Shown here: positions 5,380 through 42,699 of the stretch, piece after piece
Layout: each line of letters opens with the position of its first letter
Position numbering within the stretch: position 1 is the stretch's first letter
Origin: an uncultured Methanosarcinaceae archaeon
Lineage (GTDB): Archaea > Halobacteriota > Methanosarcinia > Methanosarcinales > Methanosarcinaceae
NCBI GenBank assembly: GCA_963833425.1
Contig: CAWHXP010000007.1
Span: forward strand, 224,001-288,000
DNA: 64,000 bases
Direction: 5' to 3'
Program-made: the position numbers and the translations under genes
The notes under the pieces: model-generated
The model's database searches: none
What the model was told of the DNA's origin: nothing
What the model saw: only the letters and a program-made list of their open reading frames with translations

Positions 5380-6064
5380 CTAGAAATCAGATTTATCTAA
5401 TCTTTTTAAGGCAAGTCCTTTACCGTCCCAAGCTGCTGGATTCTGTGAATCAATTTCAATTGCTTGGTTAAGTGCTGCTATTGCTTCTTCATGCTTGTTT
5501 AAAGTATTAAGAGCAAATCCTCTATTGCACCAAGCTATTGAATTATGCTGGTTAATTTTAATTATTTCGTCAAATGCTTCTATGCTTCATCGTATTTATT
5601 TCCAATAATTAGAGAAAGTCCTTTACCGTCCCAAGCTGAGGGATCTTGTAGATTAATTTCAATTGCTTTGTCAAATGCTTGTATTGCTTCATCAAATTTA
5701 TTTAAACCAATTAGAGTAAGTCCGTTACTTGTCCAAGCATCCGGTTTCTGCGGATTAATTTCGATTGCTTTGTCAAATGCTTTTAGTGCTCCTTCAGGTT
5801 TTTGTAATATAACTAGATCAAGTCCTTTTAGGTACCAAGCTTCTGAATCCTGCGGGTTAATCTCAATTGCTGTGTCCTGGGTTTTCATATCTTTTTCGAA
5901 ATAATTTTTTAAATCAAGGTGATTGTTGCTGCCTGAGTTTGGAACATCTGCAAGTTGCTTAGCACCTGAGGTGCCCACTAGGATAAAAACTACCAGTGAA
6001 ATATCCCCTAAAACCGCTAAGCTCTATGCTTTCTACTTACGTTATCACATTTGTCTTCGTTCAT
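5380..6064 (-). pseudogene. secreted/membrane-anchored TPR-repeat protein, two frameshifts
   Basis: ATG 6064 MNEDKCDNVSRKHRA, frameshift, hydrophobic AVLGDISLVVFILVGTSGA, then TPR units (AFDKAIEINPQxxxAWxxKG). A second frameshift at ~5582 lets TPRs continue to TAG at 5380. Confidence 0.85.
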
Positions 6065-7873
6065 TTTCAATCTCTCGATTCTTATTTAGATATTAATTCT
6101 CAAAAATAACTACAAATGACAAATTAATAATACTTCACTCTGCAAAGTAAACCTTTTACTAAATAAATATATTTATATTTAAATTAAAAGATCAATTACG
6201 TTACTTTTAGCTGTTATATTTTTAAAAAATTTTAAGATTACCAACAGGACAACAGCATTTTAACTTGCAAAACAGGTATTTTGAAAAAATTAACCTAAAT
6301 TCCAACACAAGCCAAAAAAAGCTGCATTGTAAGGTAGAACCTAGTCATCTAAAAAACAATGACGCATAGTTTTTATAGTAAAAACCTATGCATTTTAAGG
6401 TTCCGATAATTCAAACTCATGGATCAACACTTTACAGCTGTTCAATCATTTTAGCATGAAATCAAAACACTCGTAGTACTTATGACAGGTTACAAATTTT
6501 TAGTGTCCTTTGTTGCTGTGATGGAATGCGTTTTCGCTTATTGCAGGAGATATTATTGTTGCTACAAAAAAAACAACTAGTAAAATACCCAGTAGTTTTT
6601 TCGTTTGGTTGCGTGCTTGCTTTCCCATTTGTCTAGATTCCTAACTCTTGTTCAATTTTATCATTAGTTCGATAAACGCCATTTTTTTAGTATATCAAAA
6701 TGTTAATGCAATGGCTATGGAGACACGGTAATGATGATAGTGATGATCATCTTGTTCCTAACAACCTGTGTTGGCATTTGTCGCTGTCTTAGAGAATAAC
6801 AACACTCAAAATTAGAGTGCAATTAATTTCTTAGACATAATACGAATTATATAATCTATATATAAAAAATTTTAGCAGGATAAATATGTAAGATGGAGAA
6901 ATTTCTGGTTTTAATCGGGGAAAAAAGGTAGTGAAAAAGTAAAATAAAAGTTAATGAATAATATTGGTAGCAATTTTTGATTTGGCCAGTGTATCGAAAG
7001 GTCAGTAAATTCCTATTGACTTTGTACCTTTTCTTTACCAAAAAAATAAGATTTATCTTGTTTAATGCATAGGTTTTATCACAAAACCTGTTTATGTAAT
7101 GAATTTAAGCCAGTAAATCATTAGTTGTCCTGGTGAGCTGCAGTCTATTGATGTCTTTGAGACCTGGTTAAAATCATAAAAGAATACTAGCCAGGAATGA
7201 AAATAAAGCTTTACTTATGAATAAAATTCGAATTCGCCCAAAAAAAATAGTTTAAATTTATGTATATGTAGCACTTGACAATCTAAATTTATAAGAACAT
7301 TCTAGAAATTACTCAGCTGACGCGCAGAATCAAGTACACATGCATTATGAATTGATTTTTTTGTTTGTGAGCATAAACCGTTTTTTACGATTGATTTTTC
7401 AGTTTAACTGAGTGATTCCAGCTTAATTTTTAATGCTCTTGATTCTCCACAAGCAAGCTTAGATTTTCTCACAAAAACATATGTGTTTTCGATTTTCATA
7501 TTTGCTATCATCTCTTTTTTTCAGATGCTTAGATTATCTTTATTTGTTTTTTGTTCTGTAAGCTACAGACGTTTGAGAAAAATATGGATTTTTTGTTACA
7601 TCCTTGGAAGTGGGATATGAGCAAAAAAAAGATTCAATTTTGAAGAGTTCCTTTCGTTTTTGAGGTCTACACTATTTTTGATTTTAATGAATTAAGGGAT
7701 CTATCCTTAATTTTATGACAGATAGGTAATGACTTTTCTTGTGTCTTTTAATTAGAGCGCAGAAGAATTAAAGACTCTGATCTATCCATCACATACAACT
7801 ATTGTCGTCATAATTTGTGTCACCATTATCACTTTAAGACTCCCATCCATTCTCACGATTATTGCATTAACAT

Positions 7874-8485
7874 TCATATCCAAATGGTTGGAATTGCGCC
7901 AACTGCTGGGGTTGCAGCAGTCGCTGGGGTTGCAGCAGTCGCTGGGGTTGCAGCAGTCGCTGGGGTTGCAGCAGTCGCTGGGGTTGCAGCAGTCGCTGGG
8001 GTTGCAGCAGTCGCTGGGGTTGCAGCAGTCGCTGGGGTTGCAGCAGTCGCTGGGGTTGCAGCAGTCGCTGGGGTTGCAGCAGTCGCTGGAGTTGCAGCAG
8101 TCGCTGGGGTTGCAGCAGTCGCTGGGGTTGCAGCAGTCGCTGGGGTTGCAGCAGTCGCTGGGGTTGCAGCAGTCGCTGGGGTTGCAGCAGTCGCTGGGGT
8201 TGCAGCAGTCGCTGGGGTTGCAGCAGTCGCTGGAGTTGCAGCAGTCGCTGGGGTTGCAGCAGTCGCTGGGGTTGCAGCAGTCGCTGGAGTTGCAGCAGTC
8301 GCTGGGGTTGCAGCAGTCGCTGGAACTACGCCAATTGTACCCCATTCCCAATCTGGACCCCCATAATCATCATGATATGGATATGCGATTGTTGCTATAG
8401 CTGTCAAAGACACCAAAAGGGAAACTGCCAGCAAAATAGGCAGTGCTTTTTTTATTATACGTGCTGATTGTTTCAACAATTTCAC
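7874..8485 (-). CDS. putative secreted (PATAAT)23 repeat protein, antifreeze-glycoprotein-like / mucin-like
   Basis: GGAG SD at the GTG/TTG start; basic n-region plus hydrophobic h-region (KKALPILLAVSLLVSLTAIATIA); 23 PATAAT units; all three repeat variants are synonymous (ACC>ACT) in this frame. Confidence 0.75.
   Translation of the reverse strand: MKLLKQSARIIKKALPILLAVSLLVSLTAIATIAYPYHDDYGGPDWEWGTIGVVPATAATPATAATPATAATPATAATPATAATPATAATPATAATPATAATPATAATPATAATPATAATPATAATPATAATPATAATPATAATPATAATPATAATPATAATPATAATPATAATPATAATPATAATPATAATPAVGAIPTIWI
7910..8323. repeat. 18-bp tandem repeat GGTTGCAGCAGTCGCTGG x23
   Basis: 414 bp, 23 copies, identical except G>A at 8090, 8234 and 8288. Confidence 0.98.
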
Positions 8486-9380
8486 TCCTATGTATTACTC
8501 AAATTATACTATATACGGATTTAATAGAGTTTGTTTTTCATTAGTTTTTTTATTTATCTATCATGAATATGATGAATAATAATAATGCTTATGCGTTTGA
8601 GGAAGAAAATAAGGCACTACAAGAGCGAGAAAATTTATCATAAAGATTGTGCTTAAGATAATTTTAACTTTCATACTACTTTTTTCGCATTTCAACCCAT
8701 AAGCACTATAAAATATATCGATTAAAATTTAAAGTTACTTATAAAATTTGAAAATTTATCATTAGTTAATTACAACACTTTAAAGCAGAGTCGTTTGTTA
8801 GAATATAACTAAATTGATTATTAACCGCAATAAACTCTGAATCTCTTAATATCTCCTATCAGAATGTTAGCAAGAAGCAGCCGAAAATTACATACGAAAT
8901 CATGGGCGAAGTTAACGCTTATAATCATCTGGATAAAAATCCATTTTTATATGTCTATAAAACGCAGAACAATTGAATATAATATTAGTGTTCTTGCTAC
9001 CCCCACTCACCTAATTTCAATCCACTTGAAATATGTAGGGTAGATTTAAAGAAGGGCATTTAAAGAAATATATCTAGTCAATTACGCTACTTAGAAAACT
9101 AATAAGGGATGAATATACAAAATTGACTAAATCAAAACCTCTTGCTAAGAATTAGATGGAAAAATTTGAAATATAAACAAAAAATGCAGTAACTTACTAA
9201 TATAACCACAAAAGATTTCGATAAACCCTAATTTTTGGCTGTTGGTTCATAAACTACATGCTAACAACCTATTGAAATCGGACGTCTATCGAATTTCGCT
9301 ATGAAACAAGAACTATTTGAAAAGTGTTCTCCAAAAAAATTCAGGCAAACATTTCCGAAGAGTTCTAAGAAACTCAAAAA

Positions 9381-9839
9381 TCATTCCTGCTTCTTTAATT
9401 TGGATTTATCCTTTTGCTTAGACCTCCTTTGTTTGAAAACCGAGGGCAAGTGCAGGGCATAAGAACCTTCTTCTCTGATTGCCATAACTAGCTCTTTCCT
9501 TTCCAAAAGAGAATCAAGATTAAGTTCATAAGACCCTGGTCCAAGAATCCTCACAGATTCTACCCTTTCTTCTTCTACTATCCCCTCGGTTTCAAATTCC
9601 TTTTTTTTGTTTTCCTGCTCAGAGGCAAGAGCCTCATCAATACTCCTAACAACTCCATCCAGAGAGGATTCAAGATCCAATTTCTGTTCTCCCATAGCGG
9701 GCTTTCGTTGGATTTCCGAGCTTTCTGACTCCTTTTTAGCGTAAAGGAATTTGTTCCAGCCGCAGGTAGGGCAACCGCTCAAGATGACAGAATCTCCGTC
9801 TTCAAAAATGGTTCCGCATCTGGTGCATCTGTGGGGCAT
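9381..9839 (-). CDS. Zn-ribbon domain protein (DUF2072, OapC/ArvC-like)
   Basis: MPHRCTRCG...ILSGCPTCGWNKFLY and C-terminal VESVRILGPGSYELNL...EEGSY; GGTGA SD before ATG 9839. Confidence 0.88.
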   Translation of the reverse strand: MPHRCTRCGTIFEDGDSVILSGCPTCGWNKFLYAKKESESSEIQRKPAMGEQKLDLESSLDGVVRSIDEALASEQENKKKEFETEGIVEEERVESVRILGPGSYELNLDSLLERKELVMAIREEGSYALHLPSVFKQRRSKQKDKSKLKKQE

Positions 9840-10246
9840 GAATTCACCGATCAATATATGAGTATAAACTAATTTGTTGAAACTGATATAAGCATACAGT
9901 CGGTAACTTAAAGCAAGTTTAAATTAATATCCTAAACGATATATCTATGTTATACATCTCAATTGTACTTTTAATAAACACTCTGAACAGATATCTATAT
10001 TTGTATTTGCTGCTTAATATTTGCTTTTAAGAGGAAAAGCTATTCTCACTGGTAAAGGCAAAAAAACCATATACGATCGTAAAATCTCCTTAACTTTTCG
10101 GTAGACAAATATAGAGCCTCCATTCTGATGATGCACAAGTCTATATAATTTGTTTGCCCATTTGCCCACTGTTCATAAGTATCTATTGCATCAAAATAGT
10201 TATACTACATCTGATTTTTTGTGGGCTGGATAGTTATATAAATTCT

Positions 10247-10972
10247 TTATAAAATTTGCCAGTACTGTTTCCCCCCGGTTATTTTGGAGCTGACTCTGCA
10301 AACTCTTTCCATCTCTTCCATAACTTCAGGAATCCGTCCTGGCTGGGTGATTTCAAAGACTATTGGATCAATTGCATGGTTTATGTAAAGGCTGTGTTTT
10401 AGATCTTCAAGGCTCCAGCATTTTTTAGGATATTTTTTCATACATTTGGTAAGGATACTAATCATATCTTCCATAAAGTTCCAAGGATAGACAATCCAGG
10501 CCCAATCTTCGAGTCGCTCTCCCACATAATCAGGGTCAATTTTTGAACTTCCAAGATACTGCAGTGAAGCTGTTCTTACTTCTATAGGATTCCGGCTTTC
10601 CACGTAAGTTTTAGCACTTAGCATACTCTCTCCGGTATCGACAATATCATCCACTATAAGCACTTTTTTGCCTTCCATAACATTATCTGGGAGAGGATAT
10701 TTAATAAAAGGCTCACCGCTGTAGATAGCCATGGTTCCTATATAATGCTCTATTTTCAGACTGGACAAGTCATCTAAACCCAGAAAATCACAGATTACAC
10801 GCCCTGCAAACCAGCCTCCTCTGGCAAGCGCAATAATTACGTCAGGTTCATATCTTGAATGTTTTATTTTCGTCGATATTTTTCGACACAAACCATAAAT
10901 GTAATCCCAATTAGTAAGCACACATTTGAATGATTCTATGCAAATCCCCCCATAATCCGGAATTTGGCGCAT
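10247..10972 (-). CDS. purine (hypoxanthine/guanine/xanthine-type) phosphoribosyltransferase family protein
   Basis: IIALARGG, PRPP-binding loop VLIVDDIVDTGESM, WIVYPW. Confidence 0.9.
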   Translation of the reverse strand: MRQIPDYGGICIESFKCVLTNWDYIYGLCRKISTKIKHSRYEPDVIIALARGGWFAGRVICDFLGLDDLSSLKIEHYIGTMAIYSGEPFIKYPLPDNVMEGKKVLIVDDIVDTGESMLSAKTYVESRNPIEVRTASLQYLGSSKIDPDYVGERLEDWAWIVYPWNFMEDMISILTKCMKKYPKKCWSLEDLKHSLYINHAIDPIVFEITQPGRIPEVMEEMERVCRVSSKITGGKQYWQIL

Positions 10973-11441
10973 ATGGAGACGCTCAACGTTTCATGAGCAT
11001 TCATTTTTCAAGTTCCTTCTACACATATAAAACTTAAACTGGTAAAGAAAATCCTTTGTTCAATACAATGCTTATTATATTACAAATAAATATATTTTTA
11101 CTCGGTGTCTATGAAAAATTAATTCGAGAACTACAAGTAATCCTCGTATTAAAAAATGTTTTTAAAATATATCGTTCTATAAATTTAGTAAGTTGAAGGA
11201 AATTTGAGCAAATTTAGGATAATTTTGATAAACCTTTTACCTCAATGAACCCCGAATTTACTCCATAGAATTAACAGACCAAAAAATGAATTTTTTGAAA
11301 TCCCTTTTAAAAATTTGCATCTAATTTCTATTCTAAAAAATCTAACTTTTCGATTAAAAAGATATCAACCACACAAATATTTATCAGAAATCATTTTTTA
11401 CCATCATTATCGGGCGGTAATAACTTTTTTATTCAAATGAT

Positions 11442-13930: not shown

Positions 13931-14078
13931 AAAATTCTTCCAGTTCAAGGACTTTGCGCAGACATGCTTAAGAGAGCGATGCGTAATCTGCTTTTTAATA
14001 CTAAAGCCACGTTGAATAAAATTAATTAATACTGTTCATGATGAACTTGCTTTTAAATGCAAGGCAGAAAAAGCTGAA
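13931..14078 (+). pseudogene. family A DNA polymerase C-terminal remnant (motif C)
   Basis: Translates, with one frameshift and one stop, as KILPVQGLCADMLKRAMRNL/FLILKPR*IKLINTVHDELAFKCKAEKAE. Colinear with NLPIQSLCTDMIKIAMTNIFRQLEPKSVKFINTVHDELVFECAEAQADE at ~62790-62940. Confidence 0.85.
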
Positions 14079-17000
14079 ATAACGCTCAGAAACAACCGTA
14101 TTCTTAAGGCAATCAATCGGATCTTCAGCATTGTAGTACAGGATAAGACAGAAGAAGATCTGGGAAAAGAGTGCCTTGCTGTAGGTCTATAAGTGACAGG
14201 CAGTCCGCTCGGTTTCGTCAATTTAATGGGTGATTATGGGCTACTGCTCGATATTTTGATCAGCGACATTTGGTTGGAACAGTGCCTGATGTACGACAAG
14301 ACTGGCCATCGCCGTCCTCCGGGAAATTTTGTCGTGCATGGCTTGTATGGTAATGTCATTAAAAACGGGAAGGGATTTTTTACTAACGATCCACTATCAC
14401 ATCAAGATAGTATCGGCGTGACACACGGTCATCCCCAACTCACTTCATTTCTTGGCGTACCCCTAAATCTTAGATGAGAAAATAGTAGGCATGCTGGGGG
14501 CTGCAAACAGAGAAGGGAGCTATAGATGCGAGCAGCAGGAAGATCTTGTAACTATCGTACCAGCAATTGTGCAAGCTCTACATAGGAAAGGAGCCGAAAA
14601 GAAACTGCAGGAAAGCGAGGAGCAATAAAAGGCATTTTGAGAATAGTATTGATGCCGTTCTTCTCACATCACCAGATGGAACCATTGTTGCAGCTAATGC
14701 AGACGCCTGCCGGATCTTCGGTATGACCGGGAGGGAGAAATCATCAGAGCTGGTAGAGAAGGGGTTGTAGATACATCTGATCCAAGACGCCATCCTGCCC
14801 TGGAGGAAAGGGCCAAGACGGGCAAATTTAAGGGGGAGCTCAATTACAAGCGGAACGACGGTACAATTTTTTCAGGCGAGGTATCGACTACATTATTCAA
14901 GGGTAAAGATGACTCGATGAGAACCTTTACGATCATTAGGGATATTACCGAGCGCAAACAGGGACAGGAGATACTACAAAAGAACGAGTATTAGTACCGT
15001 CGTCTATTTGAGAATATTCAGGAAATGATCACTGTTTACGAGGTAGAGCGAGACTATGAGGGAAGGATCATCGAGCGCAGGCTGATCGATGGCAATCCAT
15101 AATTTGTTCGCACAACTAAATACGCTTCCATAGACTAGATTCGTACCAAGACTTCTAGCGAGGTCTTTGGGGAGAATGGGCGGACAATCACTTGTAGGCT
15201 GTTAAAGAAGCTATGGATAGAAATGAGGTGTGGACTCCGGAAGTGTACTTGAGCGAGTCAGACCGCTACTATATCACCATCATCATCCCTTTAGACACAA
15301 ACACCTACATTGGAACTGACCGAGACATCACCGAACTAAAAAATATAGAAAAGGCCCTTAAAGAAGGCAAAAATATCTACCGTGCGATAGGCGAATCCAT
15401 CGACTACGGCGTGTGGGTATGTGATCCAGATGGACGCAACACTTACGCCAGCCCTTCCTTTCTCAAGATGATTGGCTTAACACAACAACAATGTTCGGAT
15501 TTTGGATGGGGTGATTCCACCTCGACGATGCCGAACGCACCATCGCAGCGTGGCAGGAGCGTGTCAGGACCGAAGGCAGCTGGGATATCAAGCATCGCTT
15601 CCACGGTGTGGACGACAAATGACATAAACATATTGGCGCATGGCGTCCCCGTTCGGGACGACGCGGGGAAAATTGCGTGTTGGGCCGGTATCAATCTCGA
15701 CATCAGCGATATAGCGAAAACCTAAATGGCCTTGCATGAAAGTGAAGCGCGGTTCCGTACGATGGTTAGTGCGATCCCACAATTGGCTTGGAATGCTCAT
15801 CCAGATGGCTATATTTACTGGTATAACGAGCGCTGGTATTCTTATACTTGCACAACACCGGAGCAGATGGAAGACTGGGGCTGGCAGAGCGTTCACGATC
15901 CTGAAGTGCTACCAAAAGTACTGGAGCAGTTGAAGGCTTCGATTGCTACTGGCCAGATGTTTGATATGGAGTTCCCACTTCGCGGCGCCGATTGTATTTT
16001 TCGCCCCTTCCTTACGCGTGTTTTGCCTTTGAAAGATGTCAATGGAAATGTCATTCAGTGGTTTGGGACAAATACGGACATCACTGAGCTCAAGAGGGGA
16101 GAGCAGGAAAGTGAGACTACGGTGGAGTTTTTGGATCTCATAAGCGAGACCACGGGGATGGTAGATTTGGGTCATTCTGCCGATAATTTCTTCCAAGATC
16201 GCTCCGGCTTCGAAGCCGTAGGCATCCGACTCAAAGATGGCAATGATTATCCTTACTTCGAAACTTCTGGTTTTTCCAAGTATTCATGAGGTTTGGAAAC
16301 AGTCTCTGTGTACTGAACGATTTTGGACAGCCTATATGCGATAGTGATGGCTATCAGATTCATGAATGCATGCATGAAACGTCATCTGCGGAAGATTCGA
16401 CCCCTCTAAACCCTTCATCACAGCGCGGGGAAATTTCTGGGCCAACAGTTCCGTGGTACAGTTGGCCACTACTACTGAAGCTGATCACCTAGCCCGCACG
16501 CGCAATAGATGCAATGGTGAAGAGTATGAATCCGTAGCCATGATAGCTTTACGCGTGGGTAAGGATAGACGGGTTTTTCTCCAGTTGAAAGATAGACAAA
16601 AGAGCAGTTTACCGTGGAAACTATTTCAATGTGGGAACGGCTAGCAGACTATTTGTCCGTTGCCCTTACCAAGGCGCAGGCTGAGGAATCTTTACAGGAA
16701 GCATACGAGAATCTCCAAATGAAGTCCGAGGAGTTGCATGTTCAGTCTGAAGAAATTCAGGCACAAAACAAAGAGTTACAAACTCAATCAGAGGAATTTC
16801 GCAAAGCATATGAAACCCTGCTGGAGAGTGAGGCAAAGTACCGCGACCTATTCGAGACTGTGAGGAGGTCTTCTACATTGATCTGCTCATCTACGATGAA
16901 GATGGTAACGTCGTAGAATGGGGTTTCGAGGATTTCAACCCGGATGGATTAAAGCTCCTCGGTTTGAAAAATATTGATGATGCCAAAGGAAAAGGGGGTC

Positions 17001-17892
17001 AGAAGTGCTCGGTTGTGAGACACCTTCATTCTATCTTCCCTTGATCGAGAAGGCTCGGCTGTCGAGTAAAGCTGTCATGTTTCAGTACCATAGCCCTTAC
17101 GTGGACAAGGAATTTTTCACATCTTATATTGTTCGTGGCGACCGCCTAATTTCCGCTCAGATGGACATCACAGAGCGTAAACAAATGGAAGATGTCCTAC
17201 GCGAGAGCGAAGCACAGCGTCAGGCTACCAAAGCTATCGACGATGAACGGCAGCAGCTCTTTGACGTGCTAGAGACTCTTCAGACAATGATATGCCTGTT
17301 GACACCTGATTATCATGTCGCTTTTGCCAACCGCGCTTTCCGCGAAAAGTTCGGTGAGTCTGACGGAAGATGCTGTTATGGATATCGTTTTGGACTCACA
17401 AAGCGGTGTGAGTTCAGCGAATCCTATAAAGTACTTGAAACCGGAAAACCCCATAATTGGATGTAGTATACAGGCTTTACATTGGAAGAAAGCTATGGCC
17501 ATGGTTGGAACAAGCCCTTTCACCCAGATGACCAAAAACGTGCTTGGAATGCCTGGCAAAATGCGGTGCACAACAACGGCCCTTATTCTCTTGAATGCCG
17601 GCAACACGGTGCAGACGGCTTCTATCGCTGGTGGCTGATTCGTGGAGTGCCATTCTTAAATGAGAGTGGAGCGATAGATAAGTGGTTCGGTACTTGTACA
17701 GACATCCACGAGATCAAGCAGGCTGAAGAAAAAATTAGGTTATCCAATATTTATAATCGTAGTTTGATCGAAGCTAGCTTGGATCCTTTAGTAACCATTG
17801 GTCATGATGGTAAAATTACTGATGTAAATGAAGCTGCAGAACAAGTTACTGGTTATTCACGGATGAGCTCATTGGTACCGACTTTACGAACT

Positions 17893-17974
17893 ATTTCACT
17901 GAGCCTGAGAAGCTCAGAAAGGATATCAAGAAAATTTCACTGAGCCTGAGAAAGCTCAGAAAGGGTATCAAGAA
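17893..17974. repeat. ~41-bp imperfect tandem duplication within kinase pseudogene
   Basis: ATTTCACTGAGCCTGAGA(A)AGCTCAGAAAGG(A/G)TATCAAGAA at 17893 and 17934. Confidence 0.9.
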
Positions 17975-18738
17975 GTGTTTAAGGAAAGATTTGTGTCGGA
18001 CTATGCGCTTGAAATTCAGCACAAAAATGGAAAAATAACACCAGTTTTATACAATTCTTCAATTTATATGGATGAATTTGGTGATGTTATTGGTATTTTC
18101 GCTGCAGCACGTGACATCACAGAGCAAAAAAAAGCAGAAGAAATTTTAAAGTTGAAATTAAAAGAACTTAACCGCTCAAATGAAGAATTAGAGCAATTAG
18201 CTTACGTTTCATCTCATGATTTACAAGAGCCCTTGAGGATGATTGCAAGCTATTTGCAGCTTTTACAAAGAAGATACGAGGGTAATCTTGATGGTAAGGC
18301 TGATAAGTACATCCACTTTGCAGTTGAAGGGGCTTGCCGTATGCAAAATCTAATATATGATCTTTTAGAGTTCTCTCGAGTGGCTAGAAATACTAGAGAA
18401 CCTGAGACCGTGAATTGTGAATTTATTTTGACTCAAGCATTATCCAATTTAAAATTGATGATAAGAGATAATAAAGCCACCGTATCTCAGGATCCTTTAC
18501 CTGATGTAATGGCAGATTCTACTCAGCTAGTTCAAGTATTTCAGAATATAATTATGAATGGAATAAAATTCCACGGTGATGAAGCACCAAAAATTCGTGT
18601 CTCTGCAGAGAAAAAAGCGAATGAATGGATATTTTTGGTTCAGGATAATGGAATTGGGATTGATACACAATATTTTAAGAAAATTTTTGAAATTGTTAAA
18701 AGATTGAATAAAAGGGAAGAATATTCTGGAACAGGAAT

Positions 18739-18768
18739 AGGGCTTGCAATCTGAGGGCTTGCAATCTG
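18739..18768. repeat. 15-bp tandem duplication creating a TGA stop in the HATPase domain
   Basis: AGGGCTTGCAATCTG x2; in frame, but the junction reads ATC TGA. Confidence 0.92.
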
Positions 18769-22428: not shown

Positions 22429-24657
22429 ATGGTAGTCGATACCCAAAAAAATGAAGAACAAAAAAAATGCCCAATTGAAAAATGGATATCGTATTTAAAA
22501 AGGCAAGATTTAAAAGAACATATTGAAATTTTAATCCTATATACTTTATTAACCTTTATATTCACTTATCCTGTAATTTTTAAAATAGGGACATTTATTC
22601 CGGGAAGTGGTGATGCATTTCAGTGGATGAGAACACTTTGGTATACACCAGTAGCTATATTCAATCCGACTCTCACAAAATTAACACATGATTACTTAAT
22701 ATTCCATCCCTATGGAATACCTTCATTACCTTTTCAATCTGCATTTAACCAAGTCGTTTCATACGTATTGTCTATTATTGTTGATATAGATGTAGGATAT
22801 ACTCTATTATGGCTATTCTCATTTATTTTTGGAGCGTATGGCACATATTTACTTGTTAATAATCTATCTAATAACAAATATTCATCATTCATAGCCGGAC
22901 TTGTGTTTGCGTTTTCGCCATTTCATTTTGCACATGCTGCTGGTCATTTGGGAGCAACCAGTATCGAGTGGATACCCTTTTGTGCTCTTTATTTAATGAA
23001 AATGTTTAAAGAGGGAGGGGGGCGAAATAGTTTTTTTGCAGGAATATTCTTCATTCTTGTAGCTATGAGCGACCTTCAATACATGATGTTCATGGGAATT
23101 TTCGTAATGTTATTGTTTTTGTATGAAATCTACACCTTTTCAAGAAATGAGAAAAAAAATTGTAAAGAAAGTTTGGTACGAATATATTATAAGTACTCAT
23201 TATTTGGAGCAATTTCACTCTGTGGTTTAATACCCCTCACGTTAGGCGATATTATTATAAATGGTGCTAATAATAACTTTTTAAAATTAGACCCTTTTGA
23301 GTCTGTTACTTTCTCAACTGATTTTTTGAGTTTTTTTCTTCCACCTTTTTTACATCCCTTATTTGGGAATGTTACGAAGGGTATTTACCACGACATATAT
23401 TCAAACACAAGTGAGCGTACAACTTATATTGGATACATCGTCATATTACTCTCTTTGTTCGCGATTCGTAGACTAAAAGAAAACAAATATGTAAAATTTT
23501 GGTCAATTGCTGCGTTGCTTTTTTCGTTACTTAGTCTTGGTCCACTTCTTCGCGTAAAAGGTAACACATCGTTTACAGTGTTCCATACTTCGATTCCTCT
23601 TCCATATTTAGGCTTGTATTATATAATCCCATTTCTAGACAATTGTAGAACGACTGGGAGGTTTTTTGTAATTGCTTCACTCTCATTCGCAGTTTTGGCC
23701 GGTTATGGAATTTCAGAAGTTTTAAAGACCATCAATACTAATAAAAAAATAGTTGCAATTGTAATAAGTAGTTTGATAATTTTTGAATATTTAGCGATTC
23801 CTTTCCCAGTATCAGCTGTCAACAAACCATTATTTTATAAAGAGATCTCACAAGATAAAGATAATTATGCCCTACTTGAAATACCTGCGACTTTACGCTA
23901 TAGTGCAAGTGGTGAGATCATTTATTACCAAACAATACATGGAAAACCCGTTGTCGGTAACTGGGCTGCTAGAATGCCAGCAAATGCGAGAAACTTTGAA
24001 TTAAATACACCTGTCATAAAAGAATTAACTTATTTACATCCCTATGCTGCTGATATCCTGAACCAAGATATGAATCAAATTGGAGTATCCATTTTCAATT
24101 ATTATAATATACCATATATTATTTTGCATAAAAATTATATGAATGATACACAAGTCAATTTTGCCGAGACATTCATACAAAAAACACTCAACACAGAAAG
24201 AAAAATGTATGAAAACGATTCTCTAATTGTATATCATGTAAAAAAAGAGGTTATAAAACCATTCATGATTTTAAAAGATAATTGGTATGATACAGAAGAA
24301 TGGAATGGAGTTCCAACAAGGTGGATAGCAAGCAATGCCAACCTTTTAGTTTATTCAGGCGAAAATCATCATGTAAGATTACTTTTTAATGCAACAAGTT
24401 TTGATCATGCTAGAAATTTAAGTATCATTAGTGAAAACTCGTCAATTTCTACGATAAAGGTACCTACTGACTTGAAATCCAGAACTTTCAGTTTTGAGAC
24501 CCCAGTGAAATTGCATAAAGGTGAAAACCTCATTAGTTTTCAAGTGATGGATGGATCTGATAGACCGTGCGATATCCCAACATTAAATTTCCCTGATCCT
24601 CGAAATCTAGGTGTAGCAATACAAAATATAACACTTGTTAACTTTTCAGCATCTTAA
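22429..24657 (+). CDS. polytopic membrane protein, probable GT-C-fold (YfhO-like) glycosyltransferase with extracellular C-terminal domain
   Basis: N-terminal TM then GD acidic loop, AGLVFAFSPFH, many TMs, TYIGY, RTTGRF, LLEIP, YYQTIHGKP; GGAGAGG SD. Confidence 0.7.
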   Translation: MVVDTQKNEEQKKCPIEKWISYLKRQDLKEHIEILILYTLLTFIFTYPVIFKIGTFIPGSGDAFQWMRTLWYTPVAIFNPTLTKLTHDYLIFHPYGIPSLPFQSAFNQVVSYVLSIIVDIDVGYTLLWLFSFIFGAYGTYLLVNNLSNNKYSSFIAGLVFAFSPFHFAHAAGHLGATSIEWIPFCALYLMKMFKEGGGRNSFFAGIFFILVAMSDLQYMMFMGIFVMLLFLYEIYTFSRNEKKNCKESLVRIYYKYSLFGAISLCGLIPLTLGDIIINGANNNFLKLDPFESVTFSTDFLSFFLPPFLHPLFGNVTKGIYHDIYSNTSERTTYIGYIVILLSLFAIRRLKENKYVKFWSIAALLFSLLSLGPLLRVKGNTSFTVFHTSIPLPYLGLYYIIPFLDNCRTTGRFFVIASLSFAVLAGYGISEVLKTINTNKKIVAIVISSLIIFEYLAIPFPVSAVNKPLFYKEISQDKDNYALLEIPATLRYSASGEIIYYQTIHGKPVVGNWAARMPANARNFELNTPVIKELTYLHPYAADILNQDMNQIGVSIFNYYNIPYIILHKNYMNDTQVNFAETFIQKTLNTERKMYENDSLIVYHVKKEVIKPFMILKDNWYDTEEWNGVPTRWIASNANLLVYSGENHHVRLLFNATSFDHARNLSIISENSSISTIKVPTDLKSRTFSFETPVKLHKGENLISFQVMDGSDRPCDIPTLNFPDPRNLGVAIQNITLVNFSAS

Positions 24658-39976: not shown

Positions 39977-40922
39977 ATGCCTACAAAGAATAATATACTT
40001 GTGACAGGTGGAGCCGGATTTATAGGGAGCCACTTGGTTGATCGCCTTATAGAAGAAGGAAACAGAATTACTATTTTTGATAATCTGAGTTCAGGAAAAA
40101 TTAAATTTATAGAGAAACATCTTGAAAACACTGATTTTACATTGATTAAAGGAGACATTCTTGACCATGAAAGGATAGAAAGAGCTTGCAAAGATATTGA
40201 CCTAGTTTATCATATAGCTGCGAATCCAGATGTCAGGCTTGGGACTTCAGATACTAAAATCCATTTCGATCAGAACATTTTAGCAACATACAATCTTCTG
40301 GAATCTATGAGAAAAAACGAAGTTAAAAAAGGTAGTATTTACCTCCACCTCTACAATTTATGGAGAGGCACAAATCATGCCAACTCCAGAGAATTACGGC
40401 CCCCTGATACCTATATCACTATATGGCGCTTCCAAACTTGCCTGTGAAGCTCTTATTACCGCATATTCTCATACTTTTGATATCCAAGCATGGATCTTCC
40501 GTTTTGCAAATATTGTCGGCTCTCGTAGCACTCATGGGATTATTGTTGATTTCATCCGAAAACTGCGAGAAAATCCTACCCAGCTGGAGATTTTGGGTGA
40601 CGGTAAGCAGGAAAAGTCCTATTTGCATGTATCAGAGTGCGTCAATTCGATATTGTTTGCAATAAAAAAAAGCAGAGAAGATGTAAATATTTTTAATATT
40701 GCCTCAGAAGATACCATCAGTGCTACAGAAATAGGAAAAATTATTGTGGAAGAAATGGATCTTTCTGATATTAAGTTTAACTACACTGGGGGGAGCAGGG
40801 GCTGGAGAGGTGATGTAACAAGGATGAGATTAGACATCGAAAAACTCAAGGCCATAGGATGGAAGCCTGCCTATACGTCAGAGAGGAGCGTGAGGGAAAC
40901 TGTAAGATCATTGATTACTTGA
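39977..40922 (+). pseudogene. NAD-dependent epimerase/dehydratase (UDP-glucose 4-epimerase-like), single +1 frameshift in A-run
   Basis: ILVTGGAGFIGSH in the first ORF and YGASK/RFANIVG in the second. Removing one A from the A6 run at 40325-40330 restores KKVVFTSTSTIYGE and fuses both. Confidence 0.88.
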
Positions 40923-42315: not shown

Positions 42316-42699
42316 ATGTTAAAAATTAGTATGAAAAAGGCACTAGCTATTTTGCTGATAGTTCTTGTAGTAGGAACGTTGGCAGCTGTGGCTGTTGATG
42401 GAAGTAGAGGCGGTCGTGGCGGAGGTCGTGGCGGAGGTCACTTTGGCGGCCGAGGCGGCTGGGGCGGCTGGGGCGGCTGGGGCGGCTACGGCGGCTACGG
42501 AGGCTGGGGCGTCGGATATCCAGTTGTTGGTTATGGCGCTTGCGGTCTTGGACTAGGTACATGCGGTCTTGGCTATGGCGTCTACGGCGGCTGGCCCTCC
42601 TGGGGCTGGGGCAACGGCGGCTGGGGCTGGGGCAACGGCGGCTGGGGCGGTCGAGGCTGGTATGGCGGACGTGGCGGACGTGGCGGACGTGGACGTTAA
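42316..42699 (+). CDS. putative secreted Gly/Trp/Tyr/Arg-rich low-complexity protein
   Basis: GGAGG SD; signal peptide MKKALAILLIVLVVGTLAAVA; RGG-rich ends flanking a GGW/GGY/WG core and two CGLG motifs. Confidence 0.85.
   Translation: MLKISMKKALAILLIVLVVGTLAAVAVDGSRGGRGGGRGGGHFGGRGGWGGWGGWGGYGGYGGWGVGYPVVGYGACGLGLGTCGLGYGVYGGWPSWGWGNGGWGWGNGGWGGRGWYGGRGGRGGRGR

Follow-up and report, generated by a model that had tools for sequence, protein, structure and literature searches.

A Predicted Exported Protein of Methanosarcina With an Antifreeze-Glycoprotein-Type Thr Repeat That Likely Replaced a Val/Gly Repeat

The window analyzed here, a stretch of 64,000 nucleotides from an uncultured archaeon of the Methanosarcinaceae, carries a gene whose product is predicted to be exported and consists for the most part of 46 consecutive X-Ala-Thr tripeptides. 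We found that this gene is real and restricted to one clade within Methanosarcina, where its orthologues possess a Val/Gly-type repeat behind the same leader and linker. These Val-type orthologues, a second allele of the Thr type and the relic units at the ends of the array are new observations. In our estimate (probability of about 0.55), the protein is an exported disordered coat or matrix polypeptide, the spacer of which turned from hydrophobic to mucin-like, and not a dedicated antifreeze; it is not classed here as an antifreeze glycoprotein (AFGP).

Gene Structure and Translation Start

The open reading frame at 7874-8485 on the minus strand encodes a leader, the linker YPYHDDYGGPDWEWG, the residues TIGVV, 23 copies of PATAAT and the end PAVGAIPTIWI, followed by a stop codon. 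Listed by window position, the gene, its parts and its upstream neighbor are:

7874..8476, minus strand: whole repeat gene, likely 200 aa from TTG 8476
8482..8488, minus strand: ribosome-binding motif GGAGTGA, which includes the GTG earlier called the start
8384..8476, minus strand: predicted Sec-type signal peptide, a leader common to a large paralogous family
8339..8383, minus strand: acidic/aromatic linker, the best-conserved mature part
8324..8338, minus strand: putative 5' relic of a Val/Gly-type unit, TIGVV and then P
7910..8323, minus strand: 23 units of 18 bp, (Pro-Ala-Thr-Ala-Ala-Thr)23
7892..7909, minus strand: 3' relic unit PAVGAI, five of its six residues as in the Val-type consensus PAVGAV
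7874..7891, minus strand: short aromatic tail P-x-x-W-I, with no membrane anchor
9381..9854, minus strand: oapC, the upstream neighbor (PF09845, E 1.4e-46), used as orthology marker and not part of the gene

The frame reported in the preliminary description is real, but its GTG at 8485 lies inside the GGAGTGA motif, which is retained in all 11 alleles of the gene compared, and the sequence context makes the TTG at 8476 the likelier start. This codon is positioned 5 nt past the motif, a spacing shared by 10 of the 12 matching family starts in the assembly to which the window belongs (G000). The same choice is favored by the orthologue L071, which has TAG two codons past the GTG and before the TTG, and by the G000 copy of the closest paralogue, in which TTA replaces the first TTG. 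A scan for sigma-70 promoters and terminators, which is unsuited to archaea, gave matches at chance levels only.

The Sec-type signal peptide noted earlier is predicted by hydropathy (a basic n-region and a hydrophobic core, with values of up to 2.4 over residues 10-25), by the family alignment, in which the leader is also matched by the family HMM, and by the model of an orthologue, where the leader forms a helix with a pLDDT of about 90. Export of the protein is predicted on these same grounds, with cleavage likely after ..TIA. No Pfam family matched the protein at E<=0.1. Within the mature chain, which contains one His and no Lys or Arg, hence no basic patch, the linker motif Y-P-Y/F-x-D-D-Y-G-G-P-x-W is unchanged in 13 of 13 alleles and the penultimate Trp is present in all 10 complete alleles analyzed. 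AlphaFold2 models show no stable fold (mean pLDDT 56 and 51), pointing to a mature chain that is likely disordered.

The Repeat Array and Its Reading Frame

Translation and TRF (period 18, 23.3 copies, 98% matches, score 817) confirmed that the array at 7910-8323 on the minus strand comprises 46 consecutive X-Ala-Thr tripeptides encoded by 23 near-identical 18-bp units, this number being the count as assembled. The 138 residues include 46 Thr, with Pro at every sixth position, no Gly and no Arg/Lys or other spacer. The array is present in one copy and represents the sole run of more than eight X-X-Thr tripeptides in the six frames of the 4.07-Mb assembly. Its units end with ACC in 20 cases and with ACT in three (units 2, 5 and 13), all of which encode Thr. 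The three variants are indeed synonymous in the sense frame, as had been claimed, yet they are equally silent in the antisense VAAVAG frame and therefore do not by themselves fix the frame. It is fixed by the leader, the ribosome-binding motif and the orthologues, in which the frame is conserved.

Once the relic units at the array ends are set aside, the arrays contain 40 distinct variants. Read in the sense frame, 22 of these are silent, where chance would give one third (p 0.004, for arrays that are related and not independent). One antisense frame also scores 22, and the remaining four frames score 3-13. In the Thr arrays alone, three of four distinct variants are silent (p 0.11). Ala at unit positions 2 and 5 is kept at 318 of 322 places, terminal units included. 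Both the excess of silent variants and the conservation of Ala point to coding constraint on the array.

Other accounts of the array were considered and rejected. A Cys-rich frame (NPSDCC repeats, ORF 7782-8351) leaves only 3 of the 40 array variants silent, is not Cys-Cys-rich in Val-type alleles and has no Pfam match. The antisense frame (VAAVAG, ORF 7815-8366) keeps the variants equally silent, but reads GTAPTA in the orthologues and has no leader. As for an assembly artefact, it is excluded by an independently assembled allele, L065, and by Thr-type contigs of the sequencing runs X1, X2, X3, X5, X6, and X7.

Orthologues With a Thr-Type or a Val-Type Repeat

Across the genus, the N-terminus located the leader-linker gene in five of 59 genomes (G000, G019, G064, G065, and G067), with best E-values of 1e-28 or lower in the carriers vs. 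4.9e-10 or higher in the other 54. Among these five genomes, G000 has PATAAT and the other four have (P/S)AVGAV. A scan of genome contigs gave five loci from 53 pattern matches, one of them weak and four real; the latter are the same arrays as those of the four genus orthologues and were counted once. In metagenome contigs, 66 matches resolved into 11 loci, eight with the full N-terminus. Units of the (P/S)AVGAV type follow the same leader and linker in all four other genomes and in seven of the eight full metagenome loci. The weak matches L064 and L073-L075 were dropped, L072 duplicates L062, and L067 and L069 run off contig ends; eight complete Val-type arrays, of 6-20 units, were analyzed. 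L065 is a Thr-type metagenome allele of 14 units (12 PATAAT and two PVTAAT, with silent variation) and, over 2.9 kb upstream, shares about 95% identity with the window. Across alleles, the copy number ranges from 6 to 23.

The two types differ markedly in chemistry. Mean hydropathy per unit passes from 1.67 in the Val type to 0.40 in the Thr type, and Gly, which makes up one sixth of the residues in the Val-type unit, is absent from the Thr array. The Val-type orthologues, with V-P-A-V-G in every unit, resemble elastin-like Val-Pro-x-Gly polymers; the closest paralogue contains V-P-S-G. In the Thr form, both Val and Gly are lost.

The gene follows oapC in G000, G019, G065, G067, L065, L066, L069, and L071, among which both repeat types are represented; in the remaining 26 genome loci examined, G064 included, no copy was found after oapC. 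In G064, transposase-like ORFs lie between the two genes. Downstream of the Val-type loci L061, L062, and L077 we observed a peptidase-like gene at the counterpart of window 6900-7870; in G000 this gene is located on another contig. The window also contains, at 7064-7320, a dispersed non-coding repeat, of which G000 has four further copies (72-81% identity) and G019 has several. A search of the protein set for N-terminal homologues found none among only three candidates, while the search of representatives retrieved two short forms, P0003 (Thr type, two units plus relic) and P0014 (Val type), both possibly the result of collapsed assembly.

Independent Sequence Support, Habitat, and Transcription

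The region 6900-11000 of the window was partly present in 19 of 21 sequencing runs, in none of them by half, with best shares of 0.19-0.24. The comparison covered the runs with larger shares (X8-X12, X14, and X16-X19, with small shares, were left out). Contigs of X1, X2, X3, and X5 cover 8306-8539 with 11 differences, and none of the nine listed falls in the first unit. Those of X6 and X7 span 8289-8539 and differ at 12 positions, none of the listed ones in the two units included; as five or more differences would be expected for each Val-type unit, these units are of the Thr type. Thr-type first units hence occur in contigs of six public runs, of which X2, X6, and X7 are labeled as peat and X1, X3, and X5 as metagenome only. 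Substitutions shared by these runs reproduce three of the four N-terminal residue changes of L065, and the fourth fits the difference at 8457. All six runs may sample one Thr-type population.

Two RNA runs of one study, X3 and X5, yielded contigs of 464 and 522 nt over the 5' part of the gene and the upstream region of a close relative. These contigs leave the intergenic bin 8846-8935 empty; DNA contigs span it. Having neither strand nor level, they give a weak hint that the gene is transcribed. The permafrost-labeled RNA run X13 contains a 66-nt pure-repeat contig (depth 3.1) and one upstream piece, and the permafrost-labeled run X15 has no piece on the linker or array.

The Val-type record L062 is titled as a bog isolate, Methanosarcina sp. 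Moreover, the Thr-type L065 and the Val-type L067 share one metagenome dataset prefix, and so the repeat types show no habitat contrast. Near-identical DNA in peat-labeled runs would be compatible with a role at ice.

Direction and Tempo of the Repeat Switch

In the oapC tree (35 rows), which by itself gives no direction of change, the two Thr alleles (100/99) and the Val clade (96/87) are sister groups within a single clade (100/100). Direction is suggested by the array ends, where each Thr array is bordered by Val/Gly-type units: TIGVVP precedes it, and PAVGAI or, in L065, PAAGAL follows; the 5' relic TIGVV is identical in L065 and similar to the AIG-AVP/AVG-AVP units of Val-type alleles. 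Such relics at each end of each Thr array make it likely that the Thr unit took the place of an older Val/Gly unit, and the mutant unit would have spread through the middle of the array by slippage, leaving the ends behind. Per unit, the switch takes five nonsynonymous substitutions (Val>Thr, Gly>Ala, Val>Thr), four of which are transitions, and intermediate residues (Ile, Ala) are found in the Val-type units PAVGAA, PAIGAV, and SAVGAI. Both Val>Thr changes could have come from a single duplication of a 9-bp half unit.

Over 48 N-terminal codons, dN between the Thr and Val types is 0.19-0.24 (dS 0.23-0.46), vs. 0.02-0.07 within the Val clade; the oapC comparison gives a dN of about 0.05 at a dS of about 0.4. 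Residue changes in the leader and linker number 14 of 39, vs. 6 of 39 in a paralogue control (Fisher p 0.07-0.11, not significant), which makes faster evolution of these parts between the two lineages suggestive only. Such acceleration would fit a new function of the Thr-type gene, though relaxed and positive selection are not separable because dN/dS stays below 1. Compared with each other, the two Thr alleles give a leader dN/dS of about 0.24, based on small numbers (4 against 5 changes).

A Family of Low-Complexity Proteins and Turnover of Their Units

The N-terminus profile matched dozens of short ORFs of G000 that possess the same leader, followed by repeat bodies rich in Gly, His, Cys, Pro, or Tyr. 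Leader-family matches number at least 40-67 per genome in the five members of the clade, vs. 0-16 in the other 54, where the clade counts are lower bounds from 106 scored candidates per genome and the model, built from the clade, is biased to it. By these sequence criteria, a family of low-complexity proteins with predicted export, apparently undescribed, has expanded in this clade of peat methanogens. Its member closest to the repeat gene (G000:C13:6577-7677, with L022, L106, L107, and L108) is built of three blocks of Pro-every-six units, in 148-442 mature residues, and shares the leader type and start context of the repeat gene; the tail is W/C-I/V, with the penultimate Trp in three of five copies. 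Its first block reads PSTVPV/PSTVSV in G000 vs. PSGVAV in the others, and its Thr content is 6.6% in G000 vs. 0.7-2.2% elsewhere. With Gly replaced by Thr in this paralogue too, the repeat gene is not alone in showing unit turnover toward Thr.

Several other ORFs are related to, or reminiscent of, this family. At 42316-42699 on the plus strand of the window, a 127-aa ORF resembles its members in having a hydrophobic leader and a repeat body rich in Gly, Trp, Tyr, and Arg; it has no Pfam match and is absent from the leader-profile list. At 6503-6640 (minus strand), 1.2 kb downstream of the repeat gene, there is a short leader-bearing ORF or family remnant with a weak profile match (E 0.03). Outside the window, one member (G000:C7:122376-123275) carries long G-x-G-N-x pentapeptide repeats that might form a beta-solenoid, and another (G000:C3:475011-475406) carries (Y-P-N/S) tripeptide repeats.

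The turnover of units raises the question of near-neutral change, whereby, under relaxed selection, a mutant unit would have swept by slippage through a spacer that tolerates change, in a family with some redundancy, and its match to AFGPs would be coincidental. The intermediate states in Val-type alleles, the preponderance of transitions (4 of 5), the span of copy numbers, the turnover of paralogue units and the many very short or truncated family matches in G000 all agree with such a course, as would a half-unit duplication giving both Val>Thr changes at once. However, no allele has lost the frame, the linker, the period or the aromatic tail, three of the four array variants in Thr alleles are silent, the leader dN/dS noted above is low, albeit from small numbers, and RNA contigs cover the gene. 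We consider this explanation doubtful.

Comparison With Antifreeze Glycoproteins

The antifreeze-glycoprotein backbone, headlined in the preliminary description, is an identity that holds over all 46 tripeptides. Long pure runs of the PATAAT-type unit are rare in the sequence sets searched. No run of more than three (A/P)AT tripeptides was found in the best 150 of 374 matches from 1.84 billion representatives, nor in four matches from 7,996 candidates that were scored and are 111-356 residues long; according to controls, eight pure units in the representatives and six in the candidates would have been listed. No fish AFGP was among the backbone-search matches, and both sets may lack fish AFGPs. 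Among longer proteins, three of the four matches from 7,991 candidates (P0155, P0156, and P0157) are hypothetical proteins, related to one another, in which mixed runs of 11-15 (Ala/Pro)-Ala-Thr tripeptides, variable in number, lie inside a larger body. These runs imply that the backbone can arise by internal slippage outside an antifreeze architecture. In the open-access titles and abstract openings listed for Methanosarcina ice-binding/permafrost, Methanosarcina secreted low-complexity proteins and prokaryotic antifreeze glycoproteins, no description of the gene, its family or a prokaryotic AFGP was present.

AFGPs are described as (Ala/Pro)-Ala-Thr tripeptides, four of which suffice and up to 55 of which occur in fish (PMC4340617), with Gal-beta1,3-GalNAc-alpha on each Thr. 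The repeat protein shares this backbone, a secretory leader (here predicted) and the spacing of Pro six residues apart, reported for both forms of AFGP8 (PMC6628104). At the DNA level, fish AFGP repeats likewise arose by tandem duplication of a short unit, and relic sequence remains on either side (PMC6410882). Fish AFGPs are in turn described as products of a multigene family that are cut from polyproteins, with long forms that are Pro-free (PMC6628104, PMC6410882), unlike the single-copy gene presented here, with its 18-bp unit, Pro in alternate tripeptides along 138 residues and no polyprotein spacers. There is no shared descent: fish AFGPs are traced to non-coding DNA or a trypsinogen-like gene, and the array likely stems from a coding Val/Gly repeat. 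IAFGP of the tick Ixodes scapularis, AFGP-type, cold-induced and cold-protective (PMC4340617), is an independent non-fish protein of this class. Springtail antifreeze proteins are bundles of polyproline-II helices packed by a high periodic Gly content (PMC6834126), in contrast to the Thr array, which has no Gly.

A convergent, O-glycosylated ice-binding protein, as was proposed before, would imply that Val>Thr was selected for an alpha-GalNAc sugar and that a polyproline-II chain binds ice and limits recrystallization in freezing peat. What speaks for it, besides the exact backbone behind a predicted export leader, is the Thr-type DNA in peat-labeled X2, X6, and X7, the pure-unit contig in permafrost-labeled X13 and the faster change of the whole gene between lineages. 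A GalNAc donor is likely available, because Methanosarcina aggregates bear a methanochondroitin matrix containing GalNAc (PMC4243693). The niche may also be open, as the DUF3494 (PF11999) ice-binding domain, a beta-solenoid foreign to the Pfam-unmatched repeat protein, was matched in 0 of 59 genomes, with the positive control likewise unmatched. Yet AFGP activity is reported to require an alpha-linked N-acetyl sugar on Thr (PMC5274654; bioRxiv 10.1101/2023.09.07.556704), and the literature surveyed describes no alpha-GalNAc on Thr for methanogens. A 2018 review gives haloarchaeal S-layers as the sole characterized case of archaeal O-glycosylation, the enzymes being unknown at that time (PMC6098224), and no PF02366 O-mannosyltransferase was found in G000 (80% complete; control positive in M. 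acetivorans), in which there are two PF13231 matches. Weak ice activity without sugar may occur, since some sugar-free polyproline-II peptides mildly inhibit recrystallization (PMC6834126).

Further points weaken the antifreeze headline. The array has none of the Arg/Lys spacers of polyproteins and is not amplified, it likely derives from a (P/S)AVGAV array, and P0155-P0157 show the backbone arising inside unrelated large proteins. The gene has dozens of low-complexity paralogues, the nearest with like turnover, and the Val type is itself bog-titled (L062) and found in the dataset of the Thr type (L065, L067). On balance, we regard a convergent ice-binding protein as unlikely. The same holds for its fullest version, in which a hydrophobic (Pro-Ala-Val-Gly-Ala-Val)n matrix polymer would have become an O-glycosylated archaeal antifreeze glycoprotein that receives GalNAc via the methanochondroitin pathway and guards aggregates in freezing peat.

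A very improbable option is an anti-adhesion or anti-biofilm peptide directed against neighboring bacteria. The tick IAFGP, rich in Ala-Ala-Thr/Pro-Ala-Thr, is reported to bind bacterial walls. The repeat protein has predicted export, no anchor and the tripeptide composition of the AFGP class that includes IAFGP (PMC4340617). On the other hand, its mature chain offers no basic patch, and no immunity or regulatory neighbor was seen.

The large glycosylation region mentioned in the preliminary description as lying nearby, with no direct link to the gene, proved to be an ordinary Wzm/Wzt-type cluster by Pfam. This surface-glycan cluster (window 11442-40447) includes Wzm/Wzt, two acyltransferases, two GDP-mannose dehydratases and transferases of the GT2 and GT1 groups, and we found no link between it and the repeat gene. 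A 742-aa membrane protein encoded within the cluster (22429-24657) has no Pfam match. In addition, TPR, PAS/kinase and epimerase coding regions of the window (5413-5978, 14036-18754, and 39977-40922) are split into several ORFs, being either pseudogenes or assembly indel errors.

A Probable Mucin-Like Coat Polymer and Its Meaning

The preliminary description had named a mucin-like polymer as its alternative, and this fits better than the antifreeze headline. Haloarchaeal S-layer proteins contain Ser/Thr-rich clusters that are O-glycosylated (PMC6098224). Like such Thr-rich clusters and mucin-like polymers, the repeat protein is (by prediction) exported, Thr/Pro-rich, of low complexity and likely extended. 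Unlike S-layer glycoproteins, it stands alone, has no predicted folded domain, keeps a strict six-residue period and possesses no C-terminal membrane or lipid anchor, the chain ending 11 residues past the array.

As a disordered coat or matrix polypeptide, the protein may work as follows. Sec export and leader cleavage, both predicted, would release a 169-residue chain with aromatic ends, in which the spacer, with Pro at every sixth and Ala at every third residue, is probably extended or polyproline-II-like. The chain, anchorless as it is, would presumably be retained at the cell surface. In the sister species, the hydrophobic Val/Gly spacer would self-associate. In this lineage, one unit appears to have taken five substitutions and then to have spread by slippage, with the end units left. 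The chain would have become more hydrophilic and mucin-like, and its 46 regularly placed Thr might carry O-linked sugars. Against a coat polymer stand the missing membrane anchor and the conversion landing exactly on the AFGP backbone, with Pro spaced as in the AFGP8 described in PMC6628104. The suggestive acceleration of leader and linker, which would fit a new function, and the rarity of long pure runs of this unit, both mentioned above, count on the same side.

If the antifreeze scenario were true, the precursor state would survive in sister species and the birth of the antifreeze function could be replayed. An antifreeze glycoprotein would then be known outside animals together with its living precursor, possibly opening a microbial route to a hard-to-produce class of molecules. 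Between these sister lineages, a whole repeat swaps its chemistry, from Val/Gly to Thr/Ala, while leader, period and ends remain fixed. The Val and Thr alleles form a ready natural test pair, and the gene, with its 46 identical Thr sites vs. a Thr-free sister allele, is a strong bait for protein O-glycosylation in methanogens.
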